Assembly: GCA_041552135.1 (NCBI GenBank)
Contig: JBFELL010000002.1
Span: 1 to 47,456, forward strand
Length of the DNA stretch: 47,456 nucleotides
Reading direction: 5' to 3'
Source: Gammaproteobacteria bacterium
GTDB taxonomy: Bacteria; Pseudomonadota; Gammaproteobacteria; UBA9214
Under the pieces are notes generated by a model that made no database searches, was not told the origin of the DNA, and was given only the letters and a program-made list of their open reading frames with translations. Made by a program: the position numbers and the translations under genes. How positions within the stretch are numbered: position 1 is the first letter of the stretch; the number at the start of each line of letters is the position of its first letter. Shown here one piece after another: positions 1,632-47,067 of this stretch.

Positions 1632-1717
1632 CATGGTGATATCCCGCGAGGATTCCCGATTCCCGCAAGGGCAGCGATCCGGTTGCAGAACACCTGTTCC
1701 ATGGTGCACCAGAACTG

Positions 1718-7472: not shown

Positions 7473-7593
7473 AGTGTTTTTCAACGCCCGGGGCCGGGGC
7501 GTGTCCGGCTGGGCCTGCTGCGTGTCGCCTGATGAGCAGACATATTAACCGTAAATCAGGGCCTTGACACCCTTGCTTTATAGGTAGGATGAG

Positions 7594-8262: not shown

Positions 8263-8286
8263 GGTTTTATTCCTGAAAATATCGTC

Positions 8287-8713: not shown

Positions 8714-8727
8714 AAAGTCTGTAAAAG

Positions 8728-9846
8728 TCACTCTGCCTCATACTGACTCGCCACCCCGGCCGTGATGCGCCAGTCCTCGCCGACCGCCCGGATATCGCGC
8801 AGCTGCAGCCGGATGCGCTGCGCCATTTTTTCCAGTCCCGGCAGGTGGAACAGACCGCGCGCGGTATCGCCCATCAGGTGCGGTGCCATGTAGATCACGA
8901 GTTCATCGACCAGCCCCGCGTCCAGCATGGCACCCGACAGGCGGGCACCGGCTTCCAGATGCAACTCGTTCACCTCCAGGCGGGCAAGATACTGCATGAC
9001 GGCCGCCAGATCGGGGCGAGCGCCACGCGTCGGCAGGGTGACCACAGAGACACCGGGCCGCACCAGGGCGGCTTCCCCGGTCGCGTCCTCCAGAGCCGTC
9101 ACGACCAGGGTCTCACCCGGCTGCTGCAGCAGCTTCGCTGCGGGCGGCAAGCGCAGGCCACTGTCGATTACCACCCGCAGTGGCTGCAGCAGTGTCGCGC
9201 CGTCATGCCCCGCCAGCCGTGCTGTCAGGGAGGGATCGTCGGCCAGCACGGTGCCAATGCCGGTCATGATCGCCGAACTGCGCGCCCGCAGCCGGTGAAC
9301 GTCCTCGCGCGCGGCCGGGCCCGTGATCCACTGGCTTTCACCGCTGGCCATGGCCGTGCGCCCGTCCAGACTCATCGCCAGCTTGCAGCGGACCCACGGA
9401 CGCCCCCGGCGCATGCGCATGACAAACCCCGGATTCAGCAACTCCGCTTCCTGCTCCAGCAGGCCGTCCGCCACCTCGATGCCCGCATCACGCAGGGCCT
9501 GCAGACCCTGACCGGCGACCTGCGGGTTGGGATCCTGCATCGCGACAACGGCCCGGCTGACACCCGAGGCGATCAGGGCATCGGCACAGGGCGGTGTACG
9601 GCCGTGATGACTGCAGGGTTCCAGCGTGATATAGGCCGTGGCGCCGGCGGCGGCACTGCCGGCCTGCTGCAGCGCGTGGACCTCGGCGTGCGGACTGCCG
9701 GCCCGCTCGTGCCAGCCTTCGCCGACAACGCGGCCGTCGCTGACCACGACACAGCCGACGCGCGGATTCGGGTCGGTGGTGAACAGGCCCCGCTCTGCGA
9801 GTCGCAGGGCGCGTGCCATGAAGCGATGATCGTCAGTGGAAAACAC
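8728..9846 (-). CDS. ribD: bifunctional diaminohydroxyphosphoribosylaminopyrimidine deaminase / 5-amino-6-(5-phosphoribosylamino)uracil reductase
   Basis: 372 aa. It has the CMP/dCMP deaminase zinc motifs (HAEVHAL, PCSHHGRTPPC) followed by a reductase domain. GTG start at 9846; an alternative ATG lies at 9819. Confidence 0.92.
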   Translation of the reverse strand: MFSTDDHRFMARALRLAERGLFTTDPNPRVGCVVVSDGRVVGEGWHERAGSPHAEVHALQQAGSAAAGATAYITLEPCSHHGRTPPCADALIASGVSRAVVAMQDPNPQVAGQGLQALRDAGIEVADGLLEQEAELLNPGFVMRMRRGRPWVRCKLAMSLDGRTAMASGESQWITGPAAREDVHRLRARSSAIMTGIGTVLADDPSLTARLAGHDGATLLQPLRVVIDSGLRLPPAAKLLQQPGETLVVTALEDATGEAALVRPGVSVVTLPTRGARPDLAAVMQYLARLEVNELHLEAGARLSGAMLDAGLVDELVIYMAPHLMGDTARGLFHLPGLEKMAQRIRLQLRDIRAVGEDWRITAGVASQYEAE

Positions 9847-9929
9847 GCTCAGGCAGGAACTCCGGAAATACGGACAGGATAATGGAAGAGCTCACCAGGC
9901 AGGACACGTTGCCTGCCGCCAGCGCCGGG

Positions 9930-10430
9930 CTACTCCTCCGGCAGCAGCGATATCTGGTCCTTCTTGTCCTCGGCGGTGGGTTCACGCTCCAGTTTCTCGA
10001 TAGCCTCGCGAAACTCGTTGACGTCCTCGAAACTGCGATACACGGAGGCAAAGCGCACGAATGCCACCTGGTCGAGCTCCTTGAGCTCATGCATGACCCA
10101 CTCACCCAGCAGGCGCGACTGGATCTCGCGCTCCCCCGTGGCACGCAGGCGGTGCTGGATCCGGCTGATGGCGGCATCGACGCTTTCGGCATCCACCGGG
10201 CGTTTTTCCAGCGAACGCAGGATGCCGCCCGAGAGTTTTTTATCATCATAGGGTTCGCGCGCACCGTTGCTCTTGATGATCCGCGGCATGACCAGTTCCG
10301 CCGATTCGAAAGTGGTAAATCGCTCGCCGCAGGCCAGGCACTCGCGGCGACGACGCACCTGGGTACCTTCGCTGGCAAGCCGCGAGTCAATTACCTTGGT
10401 GTCTTCAGCCCTGCAGAATGGACAATACAT
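9930..10430 (-). CDS. nrdR: transcriptional repressor NrdR
   Basis: It has the [17 protein letters not shown] zinc-ribbon N-terminus plus an ATP-cone. The position upstream of ribD is conserved. Confidence 0.95.
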
Positions 10431-10444
10431 GCCTTTACCGACCG

Positions 10445-11698
10445 CTAAGCATACACCGGGAAGCGCCGGCAGATCGCCAGAACCTTGTCCCTGACCTCGG
10501 CGATGGTCTCCTGGTTCTCGAGATCATCGAGTATGTCGCACATCCAGCCCGCCAGTTCGCGAACCTCGGCCTCGCCAAAGCCGCGCGTGGTCACTGCCGG
10601 GGTACCGACACGAATACCGCTGGTCACAAACGGCGACTGCGGATCATTCGGTACCGCGTTCATATTCACCGTGATGTTGGCGGCACCCAGCGCGGCATCG
10701 GCCGCCTTGCCGGTCAGGCCGCGTTCGATAAAACTGACCAGGAACAGGTGGTCGTCAGTGCCGCCGGACACCACGTCGTAGCCGCGCTCGATAAACACCG
10801 CCGCCATGGCCCGGGCATTGTCCAGCACCTGCTGCTGGTAATCCCGGAAGGCCGGCTCCAGCGCCTCCCTGAACGCCACTGCCTTGGCGGCAATGACATG
10901 CATGAGCGGACCGCCCTGCGTACCGGGGAACACCAGGGAATTGAATTTCTTCTCCAGCTCCGGGTTGGCGCGCGCCAGGATGATGCCGCCGCGCGGTCCG
11001 CGCAGCGTCTTGTGTGTCGTCGAGGTAGTGACGTCGGCGATATTCACCGGGCTGGGGTAGAGGCCGGCGGCGACCAGCCCGGCCACGTGCGCCATATCGA
11101 CGAACAGGAATGCCCCGATGCTGTCGGCGATATCGCGAAAGCGCTGCCAGTCGACCTGGAGCGAGTAGGCGGAGAAACCGGCCACCACCATCTTCGGCCG
11201 GTGTTCCTGCGCCAGCGCCTCGACCTGGTCGTAGTCGATCTCGCCGGTCTCGTTGTTGAGTCCGTACTGCACGGCATTGAACAGCTTGCCGGAGAAGTTG
11301 ACCTTCGAGCCGTGAGTCAGGTGCCCGCCATCGGCCAGGCTCATGCCGAGCAGGGTATCGCCCGGCTTCAGCAGGGCCAGGTAGACCGCGGCATTCGCCT
11401 GTGAACCGGAATGCGGCTGGACGTTGGCGTAGTCGGCGTTGAACAACTGCTTGACCCGGTCGATTGCCAGCTGCTCGGCGACATCGACGTATTCACAGCC
11501 GCCGTAGTAGCGCTTGCCGGGGTAGCCCTCGGCGTACTTGTTGGTCAGCACCGAACCCTGTGCCTCCAGCACGCGCGGGCTGGCATAGTTCTCGGATGCA
11601 ATCAGTTCGATATGTTCTTCCTGGCGCCGGCGCTCGCCCTGGATGGCATCCGATAGCTCATCGTCGTAGCCGGCAATGCGCATGTCCTTGTCAAACAT
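10445..11698 (-). CDS. glyA: serine hydroxymethyltransferase
   Basis: 417 aa with full-length SHMT similarity, including the PLP-lysine region [15 protein letters not shown]. Confidence 0.96.
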
Positions 11699-21139: not shown

Positions 21140-21382
21140 ATGTCGCGAGCTGCCCCCATTCTTCCCCTGAGCGAAGCCGCGATTGGCAAGCGGTTTCGCC
21201 TGGTGAAGATCAATGGCGGCCACCGTCTGACGCGACGGCTACTGGCGCTGGGCCTCAGTCTCGGCACCGAGTTCGAAGTGGTGCAGCGCCGCGGGCGCGG
21301 TGTGGTGGTGGCGCGCGACGGCAACCGGGTCGCGCTCGGTGAAGGCGTGGCGCAAAAGCTGCTGGGCGAGGCACTCGGCTGA
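21140..21382 (+). CDS. feoA: ferrous iron transport protein A
   Basis: 80 aa counted from the ATG at 21140; the track start at 21125 is a TTG inside the operator region. It has the SH3-like FeoA pattern (GKRFRLVKINGG...LLALGLSLGTEFEVV). TGATG overlap with feoB. Confidence 0.85.
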   Translation: MSRAAPILPLSEAAIGKRFRLVKINGGHRLTRRLLALGLSLGTEFEVVQRRGRGVVVARDGNRVALGEGVAQKLLGEALG

Positions 21383-23724
21383 TGCCCTGTCACGACACCA
21401 CCGGGAGCCCCGGTCATGACACTGGCCGCACGGCAATCACCATTGCCATCGCCGGCAATCCCAACTGTGGCAAGTCGGCACTGTTCAATGCGCTGACCGG
21501 GATACGCCAGAAGACCGGTAACTGGCCTGGCGTTACCGTTGACCGCAAGGAAGGCCGCTGCAGGATCGACGGCCGCGACGTCAGTGTCATCGACCTGCCG
21601 GGTATCTATTCGTTTGACGCAAGCTCACTCGACGAGCAGGTGACGCGCGACTACCTGCTCTCGCATGATGCCGACCTGGTCGTGAATGTGGTCGACGCCA
21701 CCAACCTCGAACGCAATCTCTATTTCACCGTTCAGTTGCTGGAGATGGGCGTGCCCCTGGTGCTGGCGCTGAACATGACAGACGTGGCACGCAAGCGCGG
21801 TATTCACATCGACGGCGCGGCGCTGGCCGAAAAACTCGGCTGCCCGGTGGTACCCATCGTGGCGACCAGTGGCGAGGGCCTGAGTGAGCTGCAGGCACGC
21901 ATGCTGGCAGTCGCCGACCGGACCGACACCGGTGGCTTCCCGCTCGCGCTGGACGACTCCATCGAACAGGCGCTGCTTCAGATTGAAGCGCTGATGCAGT
22001 TCGATGATCCGGTCAACCGGCGCTGGCTTGCACTGAAACTGCTCGAGGAGGATACCGATGTCGAACAGCCAGGGGAACTGGCCACCCTGCTGGCCGACCT
22101 GCGTCATCGCATTGCCGACCGGCATGGGCAGGAGACCGACCTCGTCATTGCCGACAGCCGTTACAGTCACGCGCACGCCCTTGCGCAGGCCGTGGTTGAG
22201 CACACCGCGGGCACCACCCGCACCCTGAGCGACAGCCTCGACCGGATCGTCCTCGGTCGCATGACCGGCATCCCGCTGTTCCTCGCCGTGATGTACCTGA
22301 TGTTCCTGTTCACCATCAATGTCGGCGGTGCCTTTATCGACTTTTTCGACGGCGTGGCCGGGGCCTTCTTTGTCGACGGTCTTGGCGAACTGATGTCGGC
22401 CGCCGGCAGCCCGGACTGGCTGCGCGTACTGGTCGCCGACGGTGCCGGCGCCGGCCTGCAGGTGGTGGCGACCTTTATTCCGATCATCGCCGCGCTGTAC
22501 CTGTTCCTTTCCGTACTGGAAGACTCCGGCTACATGGCACGCGCGGCCTTCGTCATGGACCGTTTCATGCGCGCCATCGGCCTGCCAGGCAAGGCCTTCG
22601 TACCGCTTATCGTCGGCTTTGGCTGCAACGTGCCGGCCATCATGGCAACACGCACACTCGAGAACGAGCGCGAACGCAAGCTGACCATACTGATGAATCC
22701 CTTCATGTCGTGCGGCGCACGTCTGCCCGTGTATGCGCTGTTCGCCGCGGCCTTCTTTCCGCAGTCGGGCCAGAACGTGGTGTTCGCGCTGTACCTTATC
22801 GGTATCGGCGTCGCCATCCTTACCGGCCTGCTGATGAAGCAATCCCTGCTGCCCGGCAGCAGCAGCGGCTTCATGATGGAACTGCCACCGTATCACCTGC
22901 CGACACTCAAGGGGGTGCTGCTGCGTGCATGGGACCGGGTACGTCTGTTCGTCAAGGAGGCCGGTCAGGTGATCGTGGTCATGGTGCTGGCGCTGAACGT
23001 ACTCAACTCGATTGGCACCGACGGCACGTTTGGTAACGAGAACACCGAGCATTCACTGCTCAGCGAGACCGCACGCATACTCACCCCGGCATTTACACCA
23101 CTGGGCGTCCAGGAGGACAACTGGCCGGCGGTGGTCGGCATATTCTCGGGCATCCTTGCAAAGGAAGTCGTTGTCGGCACGCTGGACAGCCTCTACACCC
23201 GCGTCGCCGCTCTGGAGTCCGGTCTGCTGGAGCAACCACCGTTCGATCTCTGGCAAAGCCTGAGCGAGGCAGCCGCCACCGTCCCGCGGAACCTGGCCGA
23301 ATTGTCGGACACCCTGCTCGACCCCCTTGGTATCAGCCTTGTCAGCGAGCAGGACGCGGCGGCCCATGATGTGAACCAGGCTGTATTCGGTGCGATGCAG
23401 GCGCGTTTTGACGGCCAGGTGGGCGCCTTCGCCTACCTGCTGTTCGTGCTGCTGTACTTCCCCTGCGTGGCAACCATCGGTGCCATCCGGCGCGAGACCG
23501 GCACCGGCTGGGCGGTATTTGTCGCCGCCTGGACTACCGGCATCGCCTACCTGACGGCAACCGTCTACTACCAGGCCGCAACCTGGAGCCTGCACCCGAC
23601 GAGCTCGCTTGGCTGGATTGGCACACTGCTGCTGGTCTTTGCCGGCATCGTGATTGGCCTGCGCCTCTGGGCGCGCCGCGGGCGCCGCCGGCGTATCGGC
23701 TCAATCGACTGGGCGGAGCAATGA
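21382..23724 (+). CDS. feoB: ferrous iron transporter FeoB
   Basis: 780 aa. An N-terminal G-domain (GNPNCGKSALFNALTG, DLPG, NMTD) is followed by a polytopic membrane domain. Confidence 0.95.
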   Translation: MPCHDTTGSPGHDTGRTAITIAIAGNPNCGKSALFNALTGIRQKTGNWPGVTVDRKEGRCRIDGRDVSVIDLPGIYSFDASSLDEQVTRDYLLSHDADLVVNVVDATNLERNLYFTVQLLEMGVPLVLALNMTDVARKRGIHIDGAALAEKLGCPVVPIVATSGEGLSELQARMLAVADRTDTGGFPLALDDSIEQALLQIEALMQFDDPVNRRWLALKLLEEDTDVEQPGELATLLADLRHRIADRHGQETDLVIADSRYSHAHALAQAVVEHTAGTTRTLSDSLDRIVLGRMTGIPLFLAVMYLMFLFTINVGGAFIDFFDGVAGAFFVDGLGELMSAAGSPDWLRVLVADGAGAGLQVVATFIPIIAALYLFLSVLEDSGYMARAAFVMDRFMRAIGLPGKAFVPLIVGFGCNVPAIMATRTLENERERKLTILMNPFMSCGARLPVYALFAAAFFPQSGQNVVFALYLIGIGVAILTGLLMKQSLLPGSSSGFMMELPPYHLPTLKGVLLRAWDRVRLFVKEAGQVIVVMVLALNVLNSIGTDGTFGNENTEHSLLSETARILTPAFTPLGVQEDNWPAVVGIFSGILAKEVVVGTLDSLYTRVAALESGLLEQPPFDLWQSLSEAAATVPRNLAELSDTLLDPLGISLVSEQDAAAHDVNQAVFGAMQARFDGQVGAFAYLLFVLLYFPCVATIGAIRRETGTGWAVFVAAWTTGIAYLTATVYYQAATWSLHPTSSLGWIGTLLLVFAGIVIGLRLWARRGRRRRIGSIDWAEQ

Positions 23725-23993
23725 TCCTCGCCGACATCCTCGAGTTCCTGCAGCAGCGTGACGCGGCCAGTCTCGGCGATATTGCGCGGCATGTCGGCGC
23801 GGAACCTGCCGCCGTGCGCGACATGCTTCACACCCTGCAGCGCAAGGGCAAGGTGCATCGTCCGGCGCTGGGCGGCGGCTGCGGCAGCACCTGCCAGCAG
23901 TGCGCGGCAGGCAGCGTCGAGCTCTATGCCTGGGGCCCGCAGAAGGCATTGACGCCGCTAGCGCCACAGTGCGCTGCGCCCGCAGATCCCTGA
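23721..23993 (+). CDS. feoC: FeoC-like winged-helix protein with a Cys cluster
   Basis: 90 aa with an ATGA overlap on the feoB stop. The N-terminus ILADILEFLQQRDAASLGDIARHVG is FeoC-like. A Cys-rich loop (GGGCGSTCQQCAAGS) follows. Confidence 0.7.
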   Translation: MILADILEFLQQRDAASLGDIARHVGAEPAAVRDMLHTLQRKGKVHRPALGGGCGSTCQQCAAGSVELYAWGPQKALTPLAPQCAAPADP

Positions 23994-24799: not shown

Positions 24800-24918
24800 A
24801 TCCGGGCAGATTTACTGTCAGGACCGACGAGCGGTCATAAAAGCCGGGAAACCGCGATCACCAGCCAGCGACTACCAGAATGGATGCCGGATCCGCTGCC
24901 GGGAAAAGGCCGTTCAGG

Positions 24919-25377
24919 CTACCTTTCCCCGCCCGCCTGTTTCCTCGCCCGCTCCACCTCGGCTTCTGCCTCACGTACCCGCTCATGGTATTCAGGTTTG
25001 AGGCGACTGCCTCCACCGGCAGTACCAATGCGGTCACCTTCGCGAACCTGACTGGCATCTTCAAGGCCCTTCTCGGCATCCTGTAGTGTCTGCCTGGCGG
25101 TCTCTTTCCGAGCTGCCCTGGCGGGCGCCCGGGACGCCCCGGCCTGACTGGCCTCTTTCTGCAATTCCGCCGCCCTTCGCCGGGCATCCTGCTGGCGTTC
25201 TGCCGACGGGCCTGGCGCATCGATAGTGACCTGCTCTTGCTGTGCCGCGCCGCTAACCGGGTGATCGGAAAATGTCACATTGCCCTGTTCATCAACAGAG
25301 CGGTAAGCGGTCTCTGCAGACACCTGAATGGCGGCTACTGCGATAATGATGATGAACAGCGACTTTACCTGATTCAT
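24919..25377 (-). CDS. DUF4124 domain-containing secreted protein
   Basis: A signal peptide is followed by the DUF4124-like motif YRSVDEQGNVTFSDHP and a charged Ala/Arg/Glu-rich tail. Confidence 0.7.
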   Translation of the reverse strand: MNQVKSLFIIIIAVAAIQVSAETAYRSVDEQGNVTFSDHPVSGAAQQEQVTIDAPGPSAERQQDARRRAAELQKEASQAGASRAPARAARKETARQTLQDAEKGLEDASQVREGDRIGTAGGGSRLKPEYHERVREAEAEVERARKQAGGER

Positions 25378-26140
25378 TGACTACCCCCTTCAGCATCGGC
25401 CCTGATCAACGCCAGCCGCATCAGAGTGCCGGCATTGTCAGCATTGTGCTGGAAAAACTGCCCTGAAATCCTGAACTGGCATACCCCTCTGTAATGAACG
25501 ACCTGTAAACCCGATAGTTGCATAAATCCTGCCCTGAAAGCGGGTTTCGCCCCATGATTTAGCAGGTAGAAATGAATATTTCATTATGCCTTCGGAGTTC
25601 ACCGTCAGCGAGGTCCTGGCACAGCACGGCAGGAGCGCCGCCCCCGGCGCGAATCGCGGCGAGGCGCCGCTCCTGCGGTAAGCTCTTTTTGCAATGATTG
25701 GGTAAATAATGACGCCAGTGAGTGCAGGCCAAATCCGGCAGGCAAATGAAAATCAGTCGCGCATTGCACGTTCACGAGCAGTTCATTCCGGTTGTCAAGG
25801 CTGTTTAACAGTATCGTCGAAAAGCGGGCATCCCACAATTGCACAATGAAGTCCGCTGATGCGCAAGATCTGAATGACGTCTGGCGACCAGATCCGCCAG
25901 TGGCAAGGCATCACATGGGCCCGTGGTCGGATAAGCTATCCGGCCTGGCGCACTCCGGTGGCTTGGCGGGCCTGACAAAATGCCCGGCATCCAGCTGTTT
26001 TTAGAACGGTTTCAATGTCATATACAGCCCTGCATCCAGCACCACATTACGTGTTGGGATCTGCCGCGGTGTCACGTATTATCGCCACAGCCTGCACGCA
26101 GGCGATTCCATACTGTGCACCCGACGGACCGGATCAATAC

Positions 26141-26638
26141 ATGAAGACACCGGAACTGGAACTCCCAGGGCATATTTATGACGAGACCGCAGCCGCGGAT
26201 GGCACCGCGACCCGGGTTACCTACTCGGCCGACAGACTGGTCGCCTGGTCAGAGCAGGAAAGGGGGGATGCGATAGAGAAATGGTGCAAACAGATTTGCG
26301 ACAGGAGGCTGGAGCGCATCGATGCATGGGAAGATAACCGGATCCTGCAACTGGAAGATGACTGGCTGTCTGTCGAGCAGGACACAGAAGAAGAGGAAGG
26401 TGACGAAAATGAGGGTCGCTACCATCTGGCATGTGAGGCCGTTGTCAGGGAAGCGGCCGGTAAACGTGACAGCGCCAGGAAACAGATGGTTGAAAACTCG
26501 GCCGCTATCGAGAAACTGGTAAAGGAAGCCAGGGATCACATCGAAGCGCACAGGCCACCCCCGCAAGAGGCGCATTTCGTCGGCTATTTCCTTGCCATCG
26601 CTGCCGTCGCCGCGGTGGCCTACGTGGTAGTGACCTGA
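26141..26638 (+). CDS. hypothetical acidic protein with a C-terminal membrane anchor
   Basis: 165 aa counted from the ATG at 26141. It has an acidic run (EQDTEEEEGDENEG) and a single C-terminal hydrophobic segment (FVGYFLAIAAVAAVAYVVVT). No family recognised. AGG/AGA Arg codons are frequent, unlike the flanking core genes. Confidence 0.4.
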   Translation: MKTPELELPGHIYDETAAADGTATRVTYSADRLVAWSEQERGDAIEKWCKQICDRRLERIDAWEDNRILQLEDDWLSVEQDTEEEEGDENEGRYHLACEAVVREAAGKRDSARKQMVENSAAIEKLVKEARDHIEAHRPPPQEAHFVGYFLAIAAVAAVAYVVVT

Positions 26639-26825
26639 TATAAAGCCGAAGGCCCGATACCCCGCATACTCCCTGACAGGGTGCTCTTTCCCGTGCAGAA
26701 ACAATACGGGGATTTACCCCGGTAACATCTCACCAATACGGGAAACCCGCTGTTCGATGCCTTCTCGTACCCGACTGTTCACGAGGACGAAAAACAGCGG
26801 CAACACGCGGGTAGGCTTGTTGCGT

Positions 26826-27254
26826 TTATTGACATTTCCTGTTGTTTGGATGTGAATCGCAGAAGCTGCCACCCCCACCGGGACGGCCCCCGTCGTCTCC
26901 GCCGCAGGAGAGTCTACCCTCAATCGTACCAATCAGCGCAGTGCTATTAGCGACCAGAAAAGCCGTTACACTCGTGCGGCTACCAACCGGCATGCAATTA
27001 CCCTGGACGAGGGCCACATGAACCATGTCACAAACACCAGGCCATCCTTGGGTGTCAAATTTGTCGCTACGGGCAGCAGTTACCCACTGCTGCCACTGCC
27101 GCGGTGTGGCGCCATGTTCGCTGCCTGTCTTTTGCGGTGAGCCGAATCGCCCGCTCGGGGCCTTGTGCAATGCCGCAACATCCATCGGGCCAGTGTAGTG
27201 CCCGGTGAAGACGATCTCGCCGACCCGGCCGGACATGGTCGCGGACTCGAGCAT
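26826..27254 (-). CDS. orphan ORF, possibly a gene remnant
   Basis: The frame is open from 27386 but has no ATG/GTG/TTG before 27254. The first half uses GC3-rich host-like codons and the second half uses lower-GC3 codons. No family recognised. Confidence 0.25.
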   Translation of the reverse strand: MLESATMSGRVGEIVFTGHYTGPMDVAALHKAPSGRFGSPQKTGSEHGATPRQWQQWVTAARSDKFDTQGWPGVCDMVHVALVQGNCMPVGSRTSVTAFLVANSTALIGTIEGRLSCGGDDGGRPGGGGSFCDSHPNNRKCQ

Positions 27255-27519
27255 GCCGCCATCGCGGCGTTGCTTTTCTGTGTATTGCGCAAGCTGTTTG
27301 CCGGTCGTCGTGAACTGCGTGAGCAGATCGCCGGGATAACAGGGTTTGCGCCCGGTGTCCCGGGGCCCTGCCTTGTCAAAGCGGAGTTATTAGCCAGGCC
27401 TGCTTTTTTGCGTTGCGATTGATCTACAAAGAAATTTCACAATGCGCTATCCTAAACATGTTCTCCTATCGAGCGTGTTTATTGCAGTGAACCTTCGCAA
27501 CATCAAGAGGGCAAAACTA

Positions 27520-27846
27520 ATGAGACTAGCAACGAAAATACTGACTTTGGCTGTCATTACAGGTACCACGGCCCTGATCTCGACCAGTGCCAGCGCCTGG
27601 TGGAGCAGTGACAACGATGATTATTGGGGCGGGGGCCCCTGGGGCTATCCGGGCTACGGCGGCTGGGGCGGCTATCCGGGCTACGGCGGCTGGGGCGGCT
27701 ATCCGGGCTACGGCGGCTGGGGCGGCTATCCGGGCTACGGCGGCTGGGGCGGCTATCCGGGCTACGGCGGCTGGCAGCAGTCCCCCCGGGTTATCTACAC
27801 TCAGCCCCCGGAATCCGGATCATCCCAGCAATACCGTATCGAGTAA
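27520..27846 (+). CDS. secreted Gly/Tyr/Trp-rich repeat protein, (GYPGYGGWG)x~5; sulfur globule protein (Sgp)-like
   Basis: The ATG at 27520 has AAGAGG 9 nt upstream. The Sec signal peptide ends in ASA|WW. The mature part is about 82 aa, Cys-free and dominated by G, Y, W and P, with about five tandem nonapeptide repeats. Confidence 0.7.
   Translation: MRLATKILTLAVITGTTALISTSASAWWSSDNDDYWGGGPWGYPGYGGWGGYPGYGGWGGYPGYGGWGGYPGYGGWGGYPGYGGWQQSPRVIYTQPPESGSSQQYRIE
27643..27774 (+). repeat. perfect 27-bp tandem repeat, about 4.9 copies (in-frame, coding)
   Basis: GGCTATCCGGGCTACGGCGGCTGGGGC repeats head-to-tail at 27643, 27670, 27697 and 27724. A 24-nt partial copy starts at 27751. I saw no mismatches. 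Confidence 0.95.
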
Positions 27847-27953
27847 CAGCCGAACGCCCGGAAGTCCGGCAATCCAAAGAAGGAATTTGCCAAAGGCTCG
27901 CTTTTTGGCCAGTTCTTTCTTGCCCGGCTCAAGCCTGACGGCTCACCCGGAAA

Positions 27954-28361
27954 TTACAGTCCCTGCGGCGAGGGGGCCGGCGTAGGTGCATTCTGGTGGA
28001 CAATCAGGCGCCAGCCGTCACCGGCTCTTCTGTAGATATTCGTGCCGTAAAACGGCGCCGGGGCCGGTTGCCCGGGCGGCGGATTCTGGATGGTCTCCTC
28101 CACCTGGTGGATGGCGATATCATCCGTTTGAATCCAGCCCAGGTGCCTGACCGACAGTGCCACTCCCTGCCCCCGGGAAAACAGGTGGCTGAACAGCTCT
28201 TCAACCTGCTGACGCCCCTGGACCATCGGATACATCGGCAGAAGACAACAGATGTCGTCGGTGTCTGCCCAGAGGGCAAACAGCTGGTTGAGATCCCCGT
28301 CTTCCAGTGCATCGTAGAAGGCGTCTTCGGCATCCTGCGGCGTGTTGTAGGCCTGTGTCAT
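27954..28361 (-). CDS. NTF2-like / SnoaL-like (DUF4440-type) protein
   Basis: 135 aa. The pattern AEDAFYDALEDGDLNQLFALWADTDD...GDGWRLIVHQ is typical of small NTF2-fold proteins. Confidence 0.65.
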   Translation of the reverse strand: MTQAYNTPQDAEDAFYDALEDGDLNQLFALWADTDDICCLLPMYPMVQGRQQVEELFSHLFSRGQGVALSVRHLGWIQTDDIAIHQVEETIQNPPPGQPAPAPFYGTNIYRRAGDGWRLIVHQNAPTPAPSPQGL

Positions 28362-29008: not shown

Positions 29009-32000
29009 TCAGCCGACCCAAAGCCGGGCATTGCGGAACATGCGCATCCACGGCGCATCCTCATCCCAGCCATCCGGATGCCAGGAATGCTGCACGGTAC
29101 GAAACACGCGTTCCGGGTGCGGCATCATGATGGTCACGCGCCCCCCGGCTGCCGTCAGGCCGGTGATGCCTTCCGGCGAGCCGTTCGGGTTGGCAGGATA
29201 GCGTGTCGCCACCCGACCGTGCCCGTCGACATAGCGGGTAGCAACGATGCCGCTGTCCAGCGCCCGCTCGGCGCCGTCCGCAGAACGGAACTCGGCACGA
29301 CCTTCACCGTGCGCGACGGCAATCGGTATTACCGAACCCGTCATGCCTGCAAAAAACATCGAGGGTGAATCCAGGATTTCAAGCTGTGATACACGCGCCT
29401 CGAACTGCTCGGAACGGTTGCGCACGAACCGGGGCCAGCCCGCCGCACCGGGTATCAGCTCGTGCAGGGTCGAGAGCATCTGGCAGCCGTTGCAGACCCC
29501 CAGCGCGAAACTGTCGTCCCGCGCGAAGAACTCGCTGAACATGTCACGCAGGCTGGCGTGGTAGAGCACGGACTTGGCCCAGCCCTGCCCCGCGCCGAGC
29601 ACGTCACCGTAGGAAAAACCGCCACAGGCCACCATGCCCTTGAAATCGGCCAGCGTCACGCGCCCGGCCAGCAGGTCGCTCATGTGGACATCGACCGCGC
29701 TAAAGCCGGCACGATGGAAGGCCGCGGCCATCTCGACATGTCCGTTGACGCCCTGTTCGCGCAGGATGGCGACCCGCGGCCGCACGCCGGTGGCGACCAG
29801 GGGGGCGGCGACATCCTCGTCGATATCGAATGTCGTGCGGCACTGGATACCCAGGTCGGTCTTGTCCAGCAGCGCATCGTATTCCTCCTGCGCACACGCC
29901 GGGTTGTCGCGCAGGGACTGCATGCGGCAGGTGGTCTCCGACCAGGCGCGCTGCAGGTCGATACGCGACTCGGCCAGCTGGATACGGGTGTCCCAGGTCA
30001 CGGTGATCTGGTCGGCGTCGTTCAGCGTGCCGATAACGTGGCTGTAGTGACCCAGCCCGGCCAGGTGCAGCACCTCGAGCACGGTATCCGTGTCACTGTG
30101 GCGCACCTGGATGAGCGCCCCGAGTTCCTCGCTGAACAGTGCCGCAACCGGGTCATCGCCGAGTTCATCCAGCTGGACCGTCACACCGCTGCGCCCGGCA
30201 AAGGCCATTTCGCAGGCGCAGGCAAACAGGCCGCCGTCGGAGCGGTCATGGTAGGCCAGCAGCAGGCCATCCGCATTCAGCTCCTGGATGGCGGCAAAGA
30301 AGGCGCGCAGGGCGCCGGGATCATCCAGGTCCGGCGGGTGATGGCCGACCTGCTTGTAGACCTGTGCCAGCGCCGAGCCGGCCAGGCGGTTGTGACCCTT
30401 GCCGAGATCGATCAGCACCAGGTCGGTGTCGCCCATGTCGGTGCGCAACTGCGGCGTCAGCGTCTTGCGCACATCGCTCACCGGCGCGAAGGCCGAGACA
30501 ATCAGTGACAGCGGCGCCGTTACCGAGCGCTCCTCCTCCCCTTCCCGCCACACCGATTTCATGGACATGGAATCCTTGCCCACCGGTATCGCGATACCCA
30601 GCGCCGGGCAGAGCTCCGCCCCGACCGCCCTGACGGTGTCGAACAGGCTGGCATCCTCCCCCGGGTGCCCGGCCGGCGCCATCCAGTTGGCCGACAGCGC
30701 AACCTTGCCCAGGGCATCAATGCGACTGGCAGCGATGTTGGTGATGGCCTCGCCCACAGCCATACGGCCGGATGCCGGTCCGTGCACCAGCGCGATCGGC
30801 GCGCGCTCGCCCATCGCCATGGCCTCGCCGGTGTGCCCGTCATAGTCCGAGGCCGTCACGGCCACATCAGCCACCGGTACCTGCCAGGGGCCGACCATCT
30901 GGTCGCGTGTGACCATGCCGGTCACGGAACGATCGCCGATGGTGATCAGGAAGGTCTTGTCGGCCACCGTCGGCAGACGCAATACCCGGTAGGCGGCTTC
31001 CCGCATGTCGAGGCCATGGGTGGAAAACCCCGGTTTCTCGAACGGGTGGTGCCTCACGTCACGCAGCATCTTCGGCGGCTTGCCCAGCAGCAGCTCCATG
31101 GGCAGGTCGATCGGCGTGTTGTCGAAGTGCGCGTCACCCAGCACCAGCTTCTGCTCGTCCGTCGCCTCGCCCAGCACGGCATACGGACAGCGCTCGCGTT
31201 CGCACAGCGCCTGGAAATCCGCCAGGCGCGCACTGTCGATCGCCAGCACATAGCGTTCCTGCGATTCGTTGCACCAGACCTGCATGGGCGACATGCCGGG
31301 ATCGTCATTCGGCACCGCCCGCAGCTCGAAGCTGCCGCCGCGGCCGCTGTCATTGACGAGTTCCGGAACGGCATTGGAGAGACCGCCGGCACCGACATCG
31401 TGGATTGACAGCACGGGATTGTCGTCACCCAGCGACCAGCAGGCATCGATAACCTCCTGTGCACGGCGCTCCATTTCCGGGTTGCCGCGCTGCACGGAGG
31501 CGAAATCGAGGTCCTCGGCGCTTGCGCCGCTGGACATGGAAGACGCCGCACCGCCGCCAAGACCGATCAGCATGGCCGGACCGCCGAGCACGACGATCGG
31601 TGTCCCGGCAGGTATATTGCCCTTGTCCACGTGCGCCTCGCGGATCGTGCCGCAGCCGCCGGCCAGCATGATGGGCTTGTGATAGCCACGCACCTCGGGG
31701 CCCTGTGGCCCCGGCACCCGCTCCTCGAAGGTACGGAAGTAGCCGCACAGGTTTGGCCGGCCGAACTCGTTGTTGAATGCGGCGGCGCCAAGCGGGCCCT
31801 CGATCATGATGTCCAGCGCCGAGACGATGCGGCCCGGGCGACCGTGATCGGTTTCCCAGGGCTGCACCAGCCCCGGCAGTCGCAGGTTGGAGACCGAGAA
31901 GCCGCACAGGCCGGCCTTGGGTTTTGCACCACGCCCCGTGGCACCCTCGTCGCGGATCTCGCCACCGGAACCGGTGGCCGCGCCCGGGAATGGCGAAATG

Positions 32001-32908
32001 GCCGTCGGGTGGTTATGCGTCTCCACCTTCATGACCAGGTGTGCCGGCTCGTGCTGCGGCCGGTACTCACGCGTGCCGGCGTCCGCGAAAAAGCGATTGA
32101 CGCGGTAACCCTCGCTCACTGCCGCATTGTCACTGTAGGCCGACAGGATGCCGTCCGGATTCGCCCGGTAGGACTCCCGGATCATGCCGAACAGGCTGCG
32201 GTCCTGTGGCCTGCCGTCGATGATCCAGTCGGCATTGAAGATCTTGTGCCGGCAGTGTTCGGAATTCGCCTGGGCAAACATCATCAGCTCGATGTCGACC
32301 GGATTGCGCCCCAGTGCCGTGAAATTCTCCGTCAGGTAGTCGATTTCATCGTCCGAGAGTGCCAGGCCGAGGGCGTTGTTGGCAGCCTCCAGCGCGGCCT
32401 TGCCGCCACCGATAACATCCACACTCTCGAAGGGAGTGGGCCCGGCATGCAGGAACAGGTCATCGGTATCGTTGATGTCGAACAGCACGCTCTCGGTCAT
32501 GCGGTCATGCAGCAGTGGCAGGATGGCATCGTATTGCGCATCTGTCAGCGCCGCCTCTGCGGTCATGCCCAGCGTATACACGATGCCGCGCTCCACCCGG
32601 ACAACCTTGTCCAGCCCGCAGTTGTGCACGATATCGGTTGCCTTGCTCGACCACGGCGAGATCGTGCCGGGACGCGGCACCACGGCCAGGGTAATGCCCT
32701 CCGCCGCCTGTTCCGGGCGCGCCGGCCCGTAGCTCAGCAACTTCTCCAGGATCGCCTGCTCGGCATCGGTGAGCGGCTCCTCGAGTTCGGCGATATGCAG
32801 GTAGTCCGCCGACACGCTGCGGATACCAACGGCGACGTCCTGCAGCTGCGACAACAGTTTTTCGAGACGAAATTCAGACAGCGCAGGGCTGCCGCGCAAA
32901 TGAAGCAT
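29009..32908 (-). CDS. purL: phosphoribosylformylglycinamidine synthase (single-chain, large PurL)
   Basis: 1299 aa with full-length similarity to gammaproteobacterial PurL. This includes the C-terminal glutaminase domain (GVCNGCQ nucleophile, MPHPER). Confidence 0.97.
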
Positions 32909-42214: not shown

Positions 42215-43588
42215 ATGGTCAAACGCCATTTGCCAACAAACGCAGTGGTCAAATCCGCCATCCCGGCATTGCTGTTGCTGACCGGCACCGCTGTTCAGGC
42301 CAGTGGCTTTGGCCTGATCGAGCAGAGCGTCAGCAGCATGGGTACGGCCTACGCCAATGGCGCCTCCGGTATCGATGATGCCAGCACCATCTGGTTCAAC
42401 CCCGCAACCATGACCCGATTGCAGGGACAACAGGCCTCGGGTGGCGCTCACATCGTCTGGTCCCGGGTTGATATCGACGCCGATGCTAACGTTGCCCCGG
42501 AGGTCCCTATATACGGCGGCACTGTAGTTAAAGGCAAGAACAACACCGATACCGATGTCCTGGCAGGAGTCCCGCATGCCGGATATTCACACCAGGTCAA
42601 TGATGATCTCTGGCTGGGCTTTTCCGTCAACGTCCCGTTCGGTCTCGAAACCGATTATGACGATGAATGGGTTGGCCGTTATCATGCCCTGAAATCGGAA
42701 CTCCTCACCATCAATTTCAACCCGTCGCTGGCATTCAAGTTCCATGAGAAAGCCTCAGTGGGTATCGGCGTCAGCGCCATGTACGCGGACGGCGAACTGA
42801 CCAATGCCCTGGATGGCGGTCTGTTAGGCAGCCTGCAGTCTATTGGCGGTGGTGGCCCACCGATCCCCGGCTGGGTTCCCGGCTCATCCAGTTTCGACAG
42901 CGAAGCAAAACTGACCGGTGACGACTGGGGCTATGGCTGGAACGCCGGTCTGCTGCTGGAACCGACCAAACACACCCGCATTGGCCTGCAGTACCGCTCC
43001 AAGGTCGATCTCGATCTTACCGGTGAAATCGAAGCCAGCGGCCCGATCATCAACATCGAGGATGATGCCGAGTTGTCGATCACCCTGCCGGATTCCTGGT
43101 CCATCAGCGCCTACCACGACATCAACGACAGGTTCGCGATCATGGCCGATGTGACCTGGACCGAGTGGAGCGAGCTTGATGAAATACGGATCAAGCGGGA
43201 TTCCGGCAACCAGATCCTGGCGATCTGGGACTGGGAAGACACCGTGCGCTATGCGCTTGGCGGCAGCTACAAACACAACAGTAACTGGCTGTTCCGGACC
43301 GGCGTCGCGTTTGACGAGGGCGCCACGCCGAATGACAGGTTGCGCACCCCGCGCGTGCCGGATGACGACCGCATCTGGTTCACGCTTGGCGCCAACTACC
43401 AGTACTCGGAGCAGATGAGCGTCGACTTCGGTTATGCCCACCTGTTCGTCGATGACCCGGAGCTGGATAATGTCGAGAGCACCTTTGACCCGACTATCGG
43501 CCAGACAGCCGGGACCCATGATATCAGCGGCAAATACGACGCGGCAGTTGACATGTTCAGTGTGCAGTTCAACTGGAAATTCAACTAG
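42215..43588 (+). CDS. outer membrane transport protein, OmpP1/FadL/TodX family
   Basis: A signal peptide is followed by ASGFGLIEQSVSSMGTAYANGA, the typical FadL N-terminal hatch. The beta-barrel signature ends in FNWKFN. Confidence 0.88.
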   Translation: MVKRHLPTNAVVKSAIPALLLLTGTAVQASGFGLIEQSVSSMGTAYANGASGIDDASTIWFNPATMTRLQGQQASGGAHIVWSRVDIDADANVAPEVPIYGGTVVKGKNNTDTDVLAGVPHAGYSHQVNDDLWLGFSVNVPFGLETDYDDEWVGRYHALKSELLTINFNPSLAFKFHEKASVGIGVSAMYADGELTNALDGGLLGSLQSIGGGGPPIPGWVPGSSSFDSEAKLTGDDWGYGWNAGLLLEPTKHTRIGLQYRSKVDLDLTGEIEASGPIINIEDDAELSITLPDSWSISAYHDINDRFAIMADVTWTEWSELDEIRIKRDSGNQILAIWDWEDTVRYALGGSYKHNSNWLFRTGVAFDEGATPNDRLRTPRVPDDDRIWFTLGANYQYSEQMSVDFGYAHLFVDDPELDNVESTFDPTIGQTAGTHDISGKYDAAVDMFSVQFNWKFN

Positions 43589-43642: not shown

Positions 43643-43674
43643 TGTCAGATCCCTGAAGCGGATCGGGATGGTGT

Positions 43675-43905
43675 TCAGCCCTTGCGCATCAGGAACATGA
43701 ACTTGCCACCCTCCTCGGTCGACTGCATCAATTCGTTGCCGGTCTGCTTGGCAAACGCCTCGAAGTCCTTGACTGAACCCGGGTCTGTTGCAATGATGCG
43801 CAGCACCTTGCCGCTTTCCATTCCATTCAGCGCCTTTTTCGCACGCAAGATCGGCAGTGGGCAATTCAGGCCCGTGGCATCAAGTTCTTCATCAAAATCG
43901 GCCAT
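43675..43905 (-). CDS. tusA: sulfurtransferase TusA family protein
   Basis: 76 aa. The conserved active-site motif GLNCPLPILRAKKAL is present (Cys-Pro-x-Pro). Confidence 0.88.
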   Translation of the reverse strand: MADFDEELDATGLNCPLPILRAKKALNGMESGKVLRIIATDPGSVKDFEAFAKQTGNELMQSTEEGGKFMFLMRKG

Positions 43906-44098
43906 TTTTTTCTCTCCTGATTATGGTGTTGACAACATTGCACTAATCCGACTCTGCAGATCGCAGCTATATTAGAATAGGTGGGTGAACTTATGCTAAT
44001 ACGTCAAGGAACGCAAGACCCTGTCTGCCGATCATCGAGGAAATCGGCCTGAATACGCCTGAACCTTGACGCTTGCTTACTGTCTGACCAAAGAATCC

Positions 44099-45589
44099 AT
44101 GATGAACAAACTCAAACCCCACCGCATCGCCTGGACGCTGATTGTTGCGCTCACCGTGCTGTACCCGGGACTTGCCCCCCGTGCCGAAAATCTCTATTCC
44201 GACCTGCCCAGTATTGGCGATTCCGCCGGCTCGGTCATCTCGCCGGTGGAGGAAAGGAAACTGGGCGCCGCCTTTATGCGGCGCATACGCCAGTCGGGTA
44301 TGGTGCTGGATGACCTGGAGATCACCAGCTACCTCAGGTCCCTGGGACGCCGGCTCGCCACCAACAGCGAAGCACCGGCCCAGCAATTCATCTTTTTCGT
44401 CGTCAACGAACCGTCGATCAATGCCTTTGCCGGCCCGGGGGGGTATATCGGTGTACATACCGGCCTGTTCCTCGCCTCGGAATCCGAAAGCGAGCTGGCC
44501 GGTGTACTGGCCCATGAAATCGCGCACGTCACGCAGCGCCACCTGGCCCGCGCCTTCGAGGCGGCCGACAACCTGAGTATCCCGTCCATGGCCGCCCTCA
44601 TCGCCGCGGTACTGATCGGCACCCAGAACACCGATGCCGGGGTCGCCACCGCGGCGATTGCCCAGGCCGGCAGCCTGCAATACCAGATCAATTTCACCCG
44701 CGCCAACGAGTACGAGGCGGACCGCGTCGGCATCCAGACCCTGGCAAACGCCGGCCTGGACCCCTACGGCATGCCGGTGTTCTTCGAGCGCCTGCAGAAA
44801 AGCTCCCGGCTCTATGGCAGTCGCCCGCCCGAATTCCTGAGCACCCACCCGGTCACCACCAATCGAATCGCCGAGGCGACCTCGCGCGCGGAGAACTACC
44901 CGCCCGGCAACAAGGACAGCCTGGACTTCCAGCTGATCCGCGCCAGGCTGCGGGTCATGACCTACGATAACCCGCACCAGGTCATTGACGACTACCGCCA
45001 GTACCGCAAACGCGGCGAGCGGGCCGAACCCTATGAGCAGTACGAATACGCCCTGCTGCTTGCCGCCACCGACGCGCACCGGGAGGCCGTGAAGATCCTG
45101 CAGTCCCTGCACCGCAAGGACCCCGATCGGATCGCCTACCGGCTGGCGCTTGCCGCCATGTACCGCAAGACCGGCGAGTCGGCGCAGGCGCTTGCCCTCT
45201 ACGAGGACAGCCTGGAACTGTATCCGGGCAGCCTGGAACTGATGGTGCCCTACGCCAGCGCGCTGCTGGCAAACGGCAGGGCAAAGGATGCCTATCAGCT
45301 GCTCAGGGATTCCTACACCATCAGCGACATTAGTAATGATAAATATAATGATCCGCATATATACAAGCTGCTGGCACAGGCCGCCGAGGCCATGGGCCGC
45401 GAGGCACAGATGCACGGCGCCATGTCACAGTATTACTTTCTGAACGGCTTTACCCGTCAGGCGATCCAGCAACTGCAGCTGGCCAGGCGCGAGTCCGGCC
45501 TGACGGACTATGAAACCGCGCGTATACAGGCACGGCTTGAAGAATTGAAGCAATTGCTCGCTGAAGAGGAAAAACAGAAACAATCCTAA
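44099..45589 (+). CDS. bepA: M48 family metalloprotease with TPR domain (BepA/YfgC-like beta-barrel assembly-enhancing protease)
   Basis: It has a signal peptide, the HEIAHV zinc motif and C-terminal TPR-like repeats. I preferred the ATG at 44099 over the TTG at 44066. Confidence 0.85.
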   Translation: MMNKLKPHRIAWTLIVALTVLYPGLAPRAENLYSDLPSIGDSAGSVISPVEERKLGAAFMRRIRQSGMVLDDLEITSYLRSLGRRLATNSEAPAQQFIFFVVNEPSINAFAGPGGYIGVHTGLFLASESESELAGVLAHEIAHVTQRHLARAFEAADNLSIPSMAALIAAVLIGTQNTDAGVATAAIAQAGSLQYQINFTRANEYEADRVGIQTLANAGLDPYGMPVFFERLQKSSRLYGSRPPEFLSTHPVTTNRIAEATSRAENYPPGNKDSLDFQLIRARLRVMTYDNPHQVIDDYRQYRKRGERAEPYEQYEYALLLAATDAHREAVKILQSLHRKDPDRIAYRLALAAMYRKTGESAQALALYEDSLELYPGSLELMVPYASALLANGRAKDAYQLLRDSYTISDISNDKYNDPHIYKLLAQAAEAMGREAQMHGAMSQYYFLNGFTRQAIQQLQLARRESGLTDYETARIQARLEELKQLLAEEEKQKQS

Positions 45590-46120: not shown

Positions 46121-46498
46121 ATGCGGAATACCGCGAGTATCCTGAAAACCGTCTTCACGCTCGTCGCCCTGCTGGGTACCCTGCTGCTGGGCTCGATTGC
46201 CCCGGCAAACGCGGAAGAAGCGAAGACAATCGCAGAGAAAGGCAAGGCCGTTGCAATCGACCGCAAGAAAGGCAATTGCCTTGCCTGCCATGCCATGGAC
46301 GACGGCAGCCTGCCGGGCAACATCGGACCGCCGCTTGTCAGCATGAAACTTCGCTTCCCCGACAAGGCCGTGCTGCGGGAGCAGATCTGGGATTCAACCG
46401 TCAAGAACCCGAACACCATCATGCCTCCCTTCGGCCGGCACAAGATGCTTTCCGAGGAAGAGATCGACTGGATTACCGAATACGTCTACAGCCTGTAA
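46121..46498 (+). CDS. soxX: sulfur oxidation c-type cytochrome SoxX
   Basis: 125 aa with GAGGAG upstream. It has a signal peptide and a single heme motif in the SoxX context (KKGNCLACHAM...LPGNIGPPL). It lies directly upstream of soxYZ. Confidence 0.8.
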   Translation: MRNTASILKTVFTLVALLGTLLLGSIAPANAEEAKTIAEKGKAVAIDRKKGNCLACHAMDDGSLPGNIGPPLVSMKLRFPDKAVLREQIWDSTVKNPNTIMPPFGRHKMLSEEEIDWITEYVYSL

Positions 46499-46541
46499 GT
46501 ACGGCTGCAGAGAACCGCACATATACCCAGGAGAAGCACAC

Positions 46542-47012
46542 GTGACTAGTATGAAACGCAGAACATTTCTAAAGGGCTCGATTGCAACCGGCGCCGTTGG
46601 CATTGCCGCAGGCGCAGGCCTGCTGACACCGCAAATGGTACTCGCCGCCTGGCCGAAGTCCGCCTTCGACGCCACCACTGTCGATGACGCCCTCAGCGGC
46701 CTGTTCGGCAGCAAGACACTGACCGGCAGCGACCAGATCAAGATCAAGGCCCCGGATATCGCCGAAAACGGCGCGGTTGTACCGGTCTCCGTCACCACGG
46801 AACTCGCCGCTGAATCCATCAGCATCATTGCCGAGAAGAACGCCAGCCCGCTGGCCGCTTCCTTCATCCTTGGCTCCGACACGGAAGGCTATGTCTCCAC
46901 CCGCATCAAGATGGGCAAGACAGCCAGCGTGATCGCCGTCGTGAAGTCCGGCGACAAGCTGTACAGCACGGGCAAGGAAGTCAAGGTCACCATCGGCGGT
47001 TGCGGCGGTTAA
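46542..47012 (+). CDS. soxY: thiosulfate oxidation carrier protein SoxY
   Basis: It has a twin-arginine signal (KRRTFLKG) and the diagnostic C-terminal GGCGG swinging-arm motif. The GTG at 46542 is 8 nt from AGGAG; an alternative ATG lies at 46551. Confidence 0.9.
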   Translation: MTSMKRRTFLKGSIATGAVGIAAGAGLLTPQMVLAAWPKSAFDATTVDDALSGLFGSKTLTGSDQIKIKAPDIAENGAVVPVSVTTELAAESISIIAEKNASPLAASFILGSDTEGYVSTRIKMGKTASVIAVVKSGDKLYSTGKEVKVTIGGCGG

Positions 47013-47067
47013 CCGGCCCTCAGCCTCACCTGACAGACACAAAGATTCAGCATAGAGAGGAATTAAC

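Follow-up and report, generated by a model that had tools for sequence, protein, structure and literature searches.

The stretch of DNA analyzed here, called the window (47,456 nucleotides (nt); contig JBFELL010000002.1 of assembly GCA_041552135.1), holds a short gene for a protein of 108 amino acids (aa) built around five glycine- and tyrosine-rich nonapeptides. Comparing its sequence with those of its relatives, we lean towards reading the product as a small periplasmic structural protein of the group resembling sulfur globule proteins (Sgp), and as a plausible coat protein of sulfur globules.

The open reading frame (ORF) is preceded, 8 nt before its ATG at 27520, by the Shine-Dalgarno sequence AAGAGGG, and opens with the 26-aa signal MRLATKILTLAVITGTTALISTSASA, whose n-region is positive, whose core is hydrophobic and which ends in ASA (positions -3 to -1); this Sec-type signal was called by eye and from conservation among homologues. 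There follow, in order, a box termed here the N-box, WWSSDNDDYWGGGPW, four copies of GYPGYGGWG and one of GYPGYGGWQ, and the tail QSPRVIYTQPPESGSSQQYRIE. The mature protein has 82 residues, a mass of 8.9 kDa, a pI of 4.3 and no cysteine, its composition being 34% G, 16% Y, 11% W and 11% P. An earlier sequence-only reading had started from a good Shine-Dalgarno sequence and ATG before a Sec signal ending in ASA, and from a Cys-free mature peptide of about 82 residues made of about five Gly/Tyr/Trp/Pro nonapeptides, all of which is borne out. In the alignment of the subgroup to which the protein belongs (A2), residues W27, W28, D34, W36 and W41 of the N-box are invariant and Y35, G39 and P40 are at least 90% conserved, while in the tail I92 is invariant and P96 is at least 90% conserved. 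An AlphaFold2 model built on a 26-sequence alignment had a mean predicted local distance difference test score of 51.7, a predicted template-modelling score of 0.20 and no secondary structure besides the signal helix; the mature protein is best described, on this prediction, as intrinsically disordered.

Proteins bearing the repeat sort into three architectures. The SgpA/B-like group carries the module GDFNMSFSGHGSGRGYGR; the Pfam family SGP (PF17228, gathering score 26.7 bits) was passed by the proteins of loci L005, L037 and L018 (42.7, 45.1 and 49.2 bits, respectively), which served as positive controls, and two of these three, L005 and L018 from Thiogranum, carry GYPGYGWG repeats on their C-terminal side. 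In type A proteins the signal is followed by (F/W)WG...GPW, then by repeats and finally by a tail rich in Pro and Ala that closes with ...STxAK; the type includes Chromatiaceae proteins and P0155, a "sulfur globule protein CV3" by the annotation of its NCBI record, not by experiment. The tail criterion ...APxAPxxSTxAK is our own descriptor, drawn from the Chromatiaceae group, with no published definition; a box resembling the N-box, AWWGNDYYDGPW, is present in proteins with this type of tail. Type B, the group of the protein under study, has the type A signal, N-box and repeats with a different tail: among 206 family members classified by tail, those of type B show a short stretch of beta-branched hydrophobic character (VIYTQP, TIIVYP, VIRIITAP or TIVVNP) followed by 10-15 polar residues. 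The earlier reading could not match the exact GYPGYGGWG repeat to a described Sgp. This stands for P0155 itself, whose units are looser (GYPGY/GYPYHG), but no longer for the wider group, since the unit GYPGYG(G)WG is found in purple sulfur bacteria, in the relatives of P0155 and in proteins that pass PF17228. GYPGYGGWG as such was found in no open full-text paper on bacteria; GYPGYG strings appear in two papers, on a Toxoplasma oocyst wall protein and on quagga mussel foot proteins.

Profile comparison by hhalign of the protein's subgroup (A2) with type A (A3) gave a probability of 99.8% and an E value of 1e-29 over 96 columns, covering signal, N-box and repeats; the tails had no convincing alignment. 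A BLAST or profile search against Sgp proteins, the check that the sequence-only reading had proposed, gave a mixed outcome: BLASTP aligned the protein with P0155 (E 9e-6, 41% identity over 91 aa, both being low-complexity sequences), while no match to PF17228 was obtained and the BLASTP comparison with ALG67575.1, an experimentally supported Sgp of Beggiatoa leptomitoformis (PMC7356093), was not significant. BLASTP with composition correction proved unreliable here, returning no alignment even with the visibly similar P0056, and was replaced by hhalign and by Smith-Waterman z scores calculated over composition-preserving shuffles. By the latter measure the protein scored 7.5-11.5 against type A proteins (7.5-8.4 in the comparison with the CV3-named P0155 and its Chromatiaceae relatives) and 6.5 against a Pfam-SGP protein. 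The N-box alone showed no significant similarity to any reference, except a marginal one to P0155 (p about 0.01).

The closest known system is SgpC/CV3 of the Chromatiaceae (Alvin_1325 of Allochromatium vinosum), represented here by P0155 and by proteins of Thiocystis violacea, Thiohalocapsa, Thiorhodococcus and Halochromatium. They have in common with our protein a Sec signal that ends in AxA, with (F/W)W coming next, a box of Trp, Gly and Pro that contains GPW, units of the GYPGYG(G)WG type, the lack of cysteine, a mature mass of about 8.9 kDa, a stand-alone gene and a sulfur-oxidizing gammaproteobacterial host; small Sgp proteins of 8.5 and 8.7 kDa are cited in PMC10892978. Our protein differs in its acidic DNDDY stretch, in units of strictly nine residues where the others have mostly eight, and in its end, ...PRVIYTQPPESGSSQQYRIE instead of the Pro/Ala-rich tail. 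SgpA and SgpB (PF17228; CV1/CV2) likewise share with it a signal followed by WWG and a Gly/Tyr/Pro-rich, Cys-free, periplasmic nature, and the identical repeat GYPGYGWGGYPGYG occurs in the Thiogranum proteins of L005 and L018; however, the central GDFNMSMxGxGRGYGR-like module of that type, present in ALG67575.1, is not found in our sequence, which also has no PF17228 match and a z score of only 2.8 with ALG67575.1. Eukaryotic Gly/Tyr-rich structural proteins (plant glycine-rich proteins (GRP, PF07172), keratin-like proteins, mussel foot proteins and the Tyr-rich protein of the Toxoplasma oocyst wall) resemble it as low-complexity repeats of glycine and aromatic residues in secreted self-assembling or adhesive materials, yet show no homology and belong to another kingdom and compartment, so that they are an analogy only. 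The GRP model gave 9.6-16.4 bits on the relatives P0056, P0031 and P0175, against a cut-off of 30 bits, and no match to our protein.

The family is almost confined to sulfur-oxidizing Gammaproteobacteria. When 185,579 species, each represented by a single genome, were scanned with a degenerate DNA pattern encoding WGGYPGYG(G)WGGYPGYG, 70 loci were found, 64 of them labelled Gammaproteobacteria or gammaproteobacterial groups. They include secreted proteins of about 100 aa in the cultured purple sulfur bacteria Thiohalocapsa halophila, Thiorhodococcus minor and Thiocystis violacea, as well as loci in Thiogranum, Thiohalobacter and one metagenome-assembled genome (MAG) of the Magnetococcales, an order known to form sulfur globules. 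A pattern for the Chromatiaceae-type N-box, WGxWG(x)GPWYGGPW, matched 27 loci with five cultured Chromatiaceae strains, Thiohalocapsa marina, Thiohalocapsa sp. ML1 and Halochromatium glycolicum among the matches; a scan of metagenomes for relatives yielded 2 confirmed loci. Allochromatium vinosum was absent from these 27 loci, from the protein search with P0155 and from the genome scan with P0155 (at least 5 loci). In a MAG labelled Euryarchaeota (L025, OY969924.1, 7037-7306) we observed a signal-peptide protein with GYPGYGNWG repeats, lacking the AWW/GPW box and either tail type, which could reflect convergence, transfer or mislabelling.

Genes of the different architectures also occur together. 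In the Thiogranum MAG of L067 a B2-type gene is found immediately upstream of a type A gene, a type A gene adjoins a Pfam-SGP gene in L037, type B genes accompany type A or SGP-type genes in four MAGs, and the two MAGs nearest to the window organism also have type A genes (L007, L022). Orthologues of our gene lie about 0.2-1.2 kb from a second, convergent gene for a secreted Gly/Tyr-rich paralogue, B5, in L152 (4690-5196, minus strand), L185 (1399-1905, minus) and L186 (1098-1595, minus). B5 begins with AFDMGNMMNPxxWF...DDDRYY and has the tail ...TIVVNPQ...RVPR, and proteins with a B5-like N-terminus come after SgpC-like genes in L160 and L161.

The gene is real and not a chance ORF. A protein search returned 290 matches of about 70-140 aa that share its architecture, bearing no names and coming almost only from metagenomes and gammaproteobacterial MAGs; the closest homologues keep all its blocks, that is the signal, AWW(N/S)xDxD(D)YWxxGPW, the GYPGYGGWG units and P(R/Q)VIYTQPQxSGSSxxYRIE. 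The start at ATG 27520 is conserved among homologues, while that of the longer JGI gene call (ATG 27442) is not, since L152 has an in-frame stop in the added stretch. In comparison with the syntenic locus L181 the protein is 75% identical to its orthologue, against 88% for the neighbouring SnoaL-like protein and 93.7% for PurL; it evolves fast. Non-synonymous changes exceed synonymous ones in the parts outside the repeats, but the counts are few and not skewed, and are uninformative on selection. In the family members P0022 and P0025 a single repeat unit stands between the N-box and the tail.

At the DNA level the array is a perfect tandem repeat: Tandem Repeats Finder reported 27643-27774 with a period of 27, 4.9 copies and 100% matches, a self-BLAST agreed on the repeat, and the first four copies use identical codons. 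Because they are perfectly identical, the copies in the window indicate a recent expansion of the array. Close relatives carry 1-6 units, the differences always being in frame, and the near-identical strain of L001/P0001 (97-99% DNA identity) has 3 units versus 5 in the window; perfect arrays come close to the length of short reads, and some of these differences in copy number may be assembly artefacts. Within L153 all differences between copies are synonymous third-position changes, and within L152 they are synonymous third-position changes plus one W-to-Y change. As inter-copy differences in the relatives are almost only of this kind, the amino acid repeat is, to judge from these codons, under selection. 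A collagen- or polyproline II-like reading of the nonapeptide, with glycine at every third position, was ruled out: most relatives use an 8-residue unit, so the triplet register is not conserved.

Upstream of the gene a 110-nt non-coding element showed 69% mean column identity over nine diverged loci of the subgroup defined by the tail, B1 (alignments A5 and A6), being as conserved as the coding region. An nhmmer profile of the element matched only upstream of B1-type genes (188 sequences, 1.07 Mb), which rules out a regulatory motif common to other Sgp-like genes. An RNA element was likewise discarded, RNAalifold predicting no pairs and Rfam giving nothing at gathering score. A simple sigma-70 consensus scan of the element found no match, and a sigma-54 promoter fails on spacing when judged by eye. 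We infer that the element combines a promoter with an unstructured leader and a strong Shine-Dalgarno sequence; its palindrome, GAAATTTC, may be the site of a regulator.

How such a protein might work can be sketched as follows. After Sec export and cleavage of the signal, the 8.9-kDa protein would adsorb to zero-valent sulfur in the periplasm, its flexible Gly/Pro repeat block, rich in Tyr and Trp, binding the sulfur, and its acidic N-box and polar C-terminus staying exposed to water. The short VIYTQP strand would serve lateral association, so that the protein and its paralogues form a coat which keeps the globule dispersed, and, the 27-nt units being identical, slippage or recombination among them could change the length of the repeat block. 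That bacteria storing sulfur carry paralogous sgp genes of low conservation is well documented (PMC10386293, PMC6509183, PMC4136832). In the protein studied here, a tail of its own kind and a conserved upstream element found at B1 loci only suggest that its function is specialized in comparison with that of the SgpC-like paralogues. What seems to be new is that the exact repeat unit ties together types A, B and some SGP-Pfam proteins, that the type B tail class has no curated model and that subgroup B1 has its own conserved leader. More tentatively, type B could be a distinct, undescribed class of sulfur globule proteins, in which an acidic N-box is followed by GYPGYG(G)WG units in variable number and by a tail with a short VIYTQP- or TIIVYP-type strand and a polar end. 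If so, the C-terminal strand would be a mechanism of assembly or docking unlike that of SgpA-D, the number of repeats would tune the properties of the coat, and type B would mark sulfur storage in abundant uncultured sediment sulfur oxidizers related to Thiohalobacter and Thiogranum and labelled Ectothiorhodospiraceae.

Sulfur storage is hard to infer from metagenomes, since Sgp proteins are poorly conserved and a curated model exists for the SgpA/B type only. The set of motifs described here (AxA|WW...GPW, GYPGYG(G)WG units and either of the two tail types) could serve as a marker of Sgp-like coats in uncultured sulfur oxidizers and would define a second, testable tail class. If sulfur is bound through the Tyr/Trp-Gly block, the protein would offer a compact model for the wetting and stabilization, by disordered proteins, of a phase that is hydrophobic and mineral-like; failing that, one would still have to explain why the family is so strongly restricted to sulfur oxidizers.

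Several observations weigh against a role in globule coats. Pfam and NCBIfam searches, including those at E ≤ 10, gave no useful match, the only one being MFS18 at 9.7 bits. PF17228 did not match even at E ≤ 10; this model covers the A/B type only, so the lack of a match is not evidence against kinship with Sgp, and P0155 is likewise unmatched by it. The tail is unlike that of every named Sgp and is absent from the SgpC-like type A proteins. With the experimentally supported Beggiatoa protein the z score is barely above composition, while the highest z of all, 12.2, was reached with the Euryarchaeota-labelled GYPGYGNWG protein; similarity is carried mostly by the low-complexity repeat unit, and on scores alone convergence is possible. 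The SgpC side of the comparison consisted of P0155 and of orthologue-like Chromatiaceae proteins. No sulfur gene is conserved as a neighbour across related loci, and in two of them genes of the VPLPA-CTERM (PEP-CTERM) type lie divergently upstream of the orthologue: L152 2076-2705 and L153 4555-5217, both on the minus strand, with TIGR03370 scores of 26.0 and 30.3 bits versus a cut-off of 25.35 bits. Sgp proteins are stated to be absent from Ectothiorhodospiraceae (PMC10892978), the label that NCBI gives to the closest MAGs, although we found Sgp-like repeat proteins in seven MAGs labelled so. Finally, the host is uncultured. The proposal of an Sgp-type envelope protein in the sequence-only reading holds as regards the shared repeat and the strong profile alignment with the SgpC-like group, and not as regards the Pfam model, the tail or a conserved sulfur-gene neighbourhood.

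Part of this evidence would fit a general envelope, matrix or adhesive protein, a disordered Gly/Tyr/Trp-rich secreted polymer serving surface attachment, flocculation or envelope mechanics in sediment Gammaproteobacteria, possibly cross-linked through tyrosine and with no particular tie to sulfur globules, whose likeness to Sgp would be a shared sticky low-complexity solution. Such a role, which we consider possible though doubtful, would agree with the lack of conserved sulfur-gene neighbours, with the PEP-CTERM-type genes of L152 and L153 (proteins of that type have been linked with flocculation and exopolysaccharide), with the GYPGYG motifs of Toxoplasma oocyst walls and quagga mussel feet, with a tail unlike those of SgpC-like proteins and with the lack of a curated family match; it does not account well for a distribution strongly tied to sulfur oxidizers, for type B genes that adjoin SgpC-like genes, for SGP-Pfam paralogues in the same MAGs or for the signal and N-box common to CV3-like proteins. 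Less probable, and in our view unlikely, is a sulfur-related factor other than a coat, such as a globule tether, a size limiter or a handler of extracellular sulfur or polysulfide, with the type B tail as docking strand for a partner. The conserved tail and private upstream element do set B1 apart from type A, P0022 and P0025 suggest, by keeping their ends around a single unit, that the specific function lies in the ends and not in the repeat, and several carriers are related to Thiohalobacter and Thiogranum and do not belong to the classic globule formers; against this, no conserved partner gene lies nearby, the tail has no predicted structure, and composition and size fit coat proteins.

A secreted glycine-rich antimicrobial peptide or bacteriocin is very unlikely: small size, export, a high Gly content and fast evolution (75% identity versus the 93.7% of PurL) speak for it, but the product has a Sec signal and no double-glycine leader, is acidic (pI 4.3) and aromatic-rich, is linked by family to Sgp-like proteins, and has no immunity, transporter or maturation genes nearby in any locus examined. 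A non-functional ORF, meaning tandemly repeated DNA of an intergenic island whose frame is open by chance, is hardly credible: its perfectly identical copies, its position bordering a variable tract of hypothetical genes with lower GC and the excess (in few counts) of non-synonymous changes outside the repeats are outweighed by hundreds of homologues retaining frame, signal, N-box and tail, by the synonymous differences between copies in relatives, by the conserved Shine-Dalgarno sequence and upstream element and by the syntenic purL-side position in L181.

Table 1. Features of the window bearing on the Sgp-like gene and its surroundings
Feature	Position	Strand	Basis or remark
Upstream non-coding element with palindrome GAAATTTC and Shine-Dalgarno sequence	27410..27519	+	Conserved; alignments A5, A6
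Shine-Dalgarno sequence AAGAGGG	27505-27511	+	Sequence
Gene for the Sgp-like protein	27520-27846	+	108 aa
Sec-type signal peptide MRLATKILTLAVITGTTALISTSASA	27520..27597	+	Sequence layout; A26/W27/W28 unchanged throughout alignments A1 and A2; the one helix that AlphaFold2 predicts
N-box WWSSDNDDYWGGGPW, acidic stretch, then GPW motif	27598..27642	+	Conservation in alignment A2
Five nonapeptide units GYPGYGGW(G/Q)	27643..27777	+	27-nt tandem repeat
C-terminal tail QSPRVIYTQPPESGSSQQYRIE, short beta-branched hydrophobic stretch, then polar end	27778..27843	+	Conservation in A2; defines subgroup B1
Stop codon TAA	27844..27846	+	Sequence
Weak terminator-like hairpin with T-rich tail	27889..27909	+	Between the gene and the SnoaL-like gene; 8 pairs, 3 G-C; consensus match only
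SnoaL-like gene	27954-28361	-	Convergent to the Sgp-like gene
purL	29009-32908
ribBA, ribE, ribD, glyA in a row	6363-11698	-
feoB (780 aa), then FeoC-like gene	21382-23993		About 3.5 kb upstream of the Sgp-like gene
Pirin-like gene			Neighbour of the Sgp-like gene
Stretch of hypothetical genes	24900-27390		Lower GC (0.56-0.58)
DUF4124 protein gene	24919-25377	-
Gene for a 207-aa protein	26015-26638		C-terminal hydrophobic segment; sub-threshold Remorin_C match
FadL-type outer-membrane protein gene	42215-43588		Beside the TusA-like gene
TusA-family sulfurtransferase-like gene	~43650-43890	-	60 bits, below the equivalog cut-off; about 2.5 kb before the sox genes
M48 peptidase/TPR gene	44066-45589		Between the TusA-like and sox genes
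soxX, soxY, soxZ	46121-47379		Very end of the window, about 19 kb from the Sgp-like gene

The surroundings of the gene are summarized in Table 1. Homology between the window and L181 begins at 27392 and synteny continues rightwards from there (the Sgp-like gene, the SnoaL-like gene, a gene for a 120-aa hypothetical protein and purL), whereas to the left of the gene L181 has RND efflux genes in place of the lower-GC hypothetical stretch of the window. Neighbours also differ among the loci L152, L153, L154, L183, L184 and L187; since they vary in this way, the gene stands alone and is monocistronic. The sgp genes of A. vinosum are reported as stand-alone transcription units (PMC10386293), a layout that ours matches, yet this is no independent functional clue. 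No other Gly/aromatic-rich ORF was found in the window, nor any evidence of a functional link between feoB/feoC and the gene.

As the sequence-only reading had noted, soxXYZ and a tusA-like gene lie in the same window, the latter about 16 kb from the Sgp-like gene; SoxX scored 91.6 bits with TIGR04485 (cut-off 61). A sulfur oxidizer that stores zero-valent sulfur is expected to combine rDsr with a Sox system lacking SoxCD. The same reading had argued from the absence of visible soxCD to the storage of sulfur globules, an argument that cannot be made here, because the window ends 77 nt past soxZ and leaves the status of soxCD and dsr out of view. The GlyA protein of the window is 89-90% identical to those of the MAGs Gammaproteobacteria 13_July_SF_Bin31 and "Ectothiorhodospiraceae" ES_Gamma_053, and 81% identical to that of Thiohalobacter thiocyanaticus; on account of the identities to MAGs, the host is an uncultured gammaproteobacterium. 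At Rfam gathering score no flavin mononucleotide (FMN) riboswitch was found anywhere in the window.

The contig of the near-identical strain (L001) showed two differences with respect to the window. At its start (positions 1-112) the reverse complement of window 8345-8435 is joined straight to 25507, a junction explained by an inversion of about 17 kb or else by chimeric assembly; further on, at 1700-3114, 1.4 kb replaces window 27095-27320.

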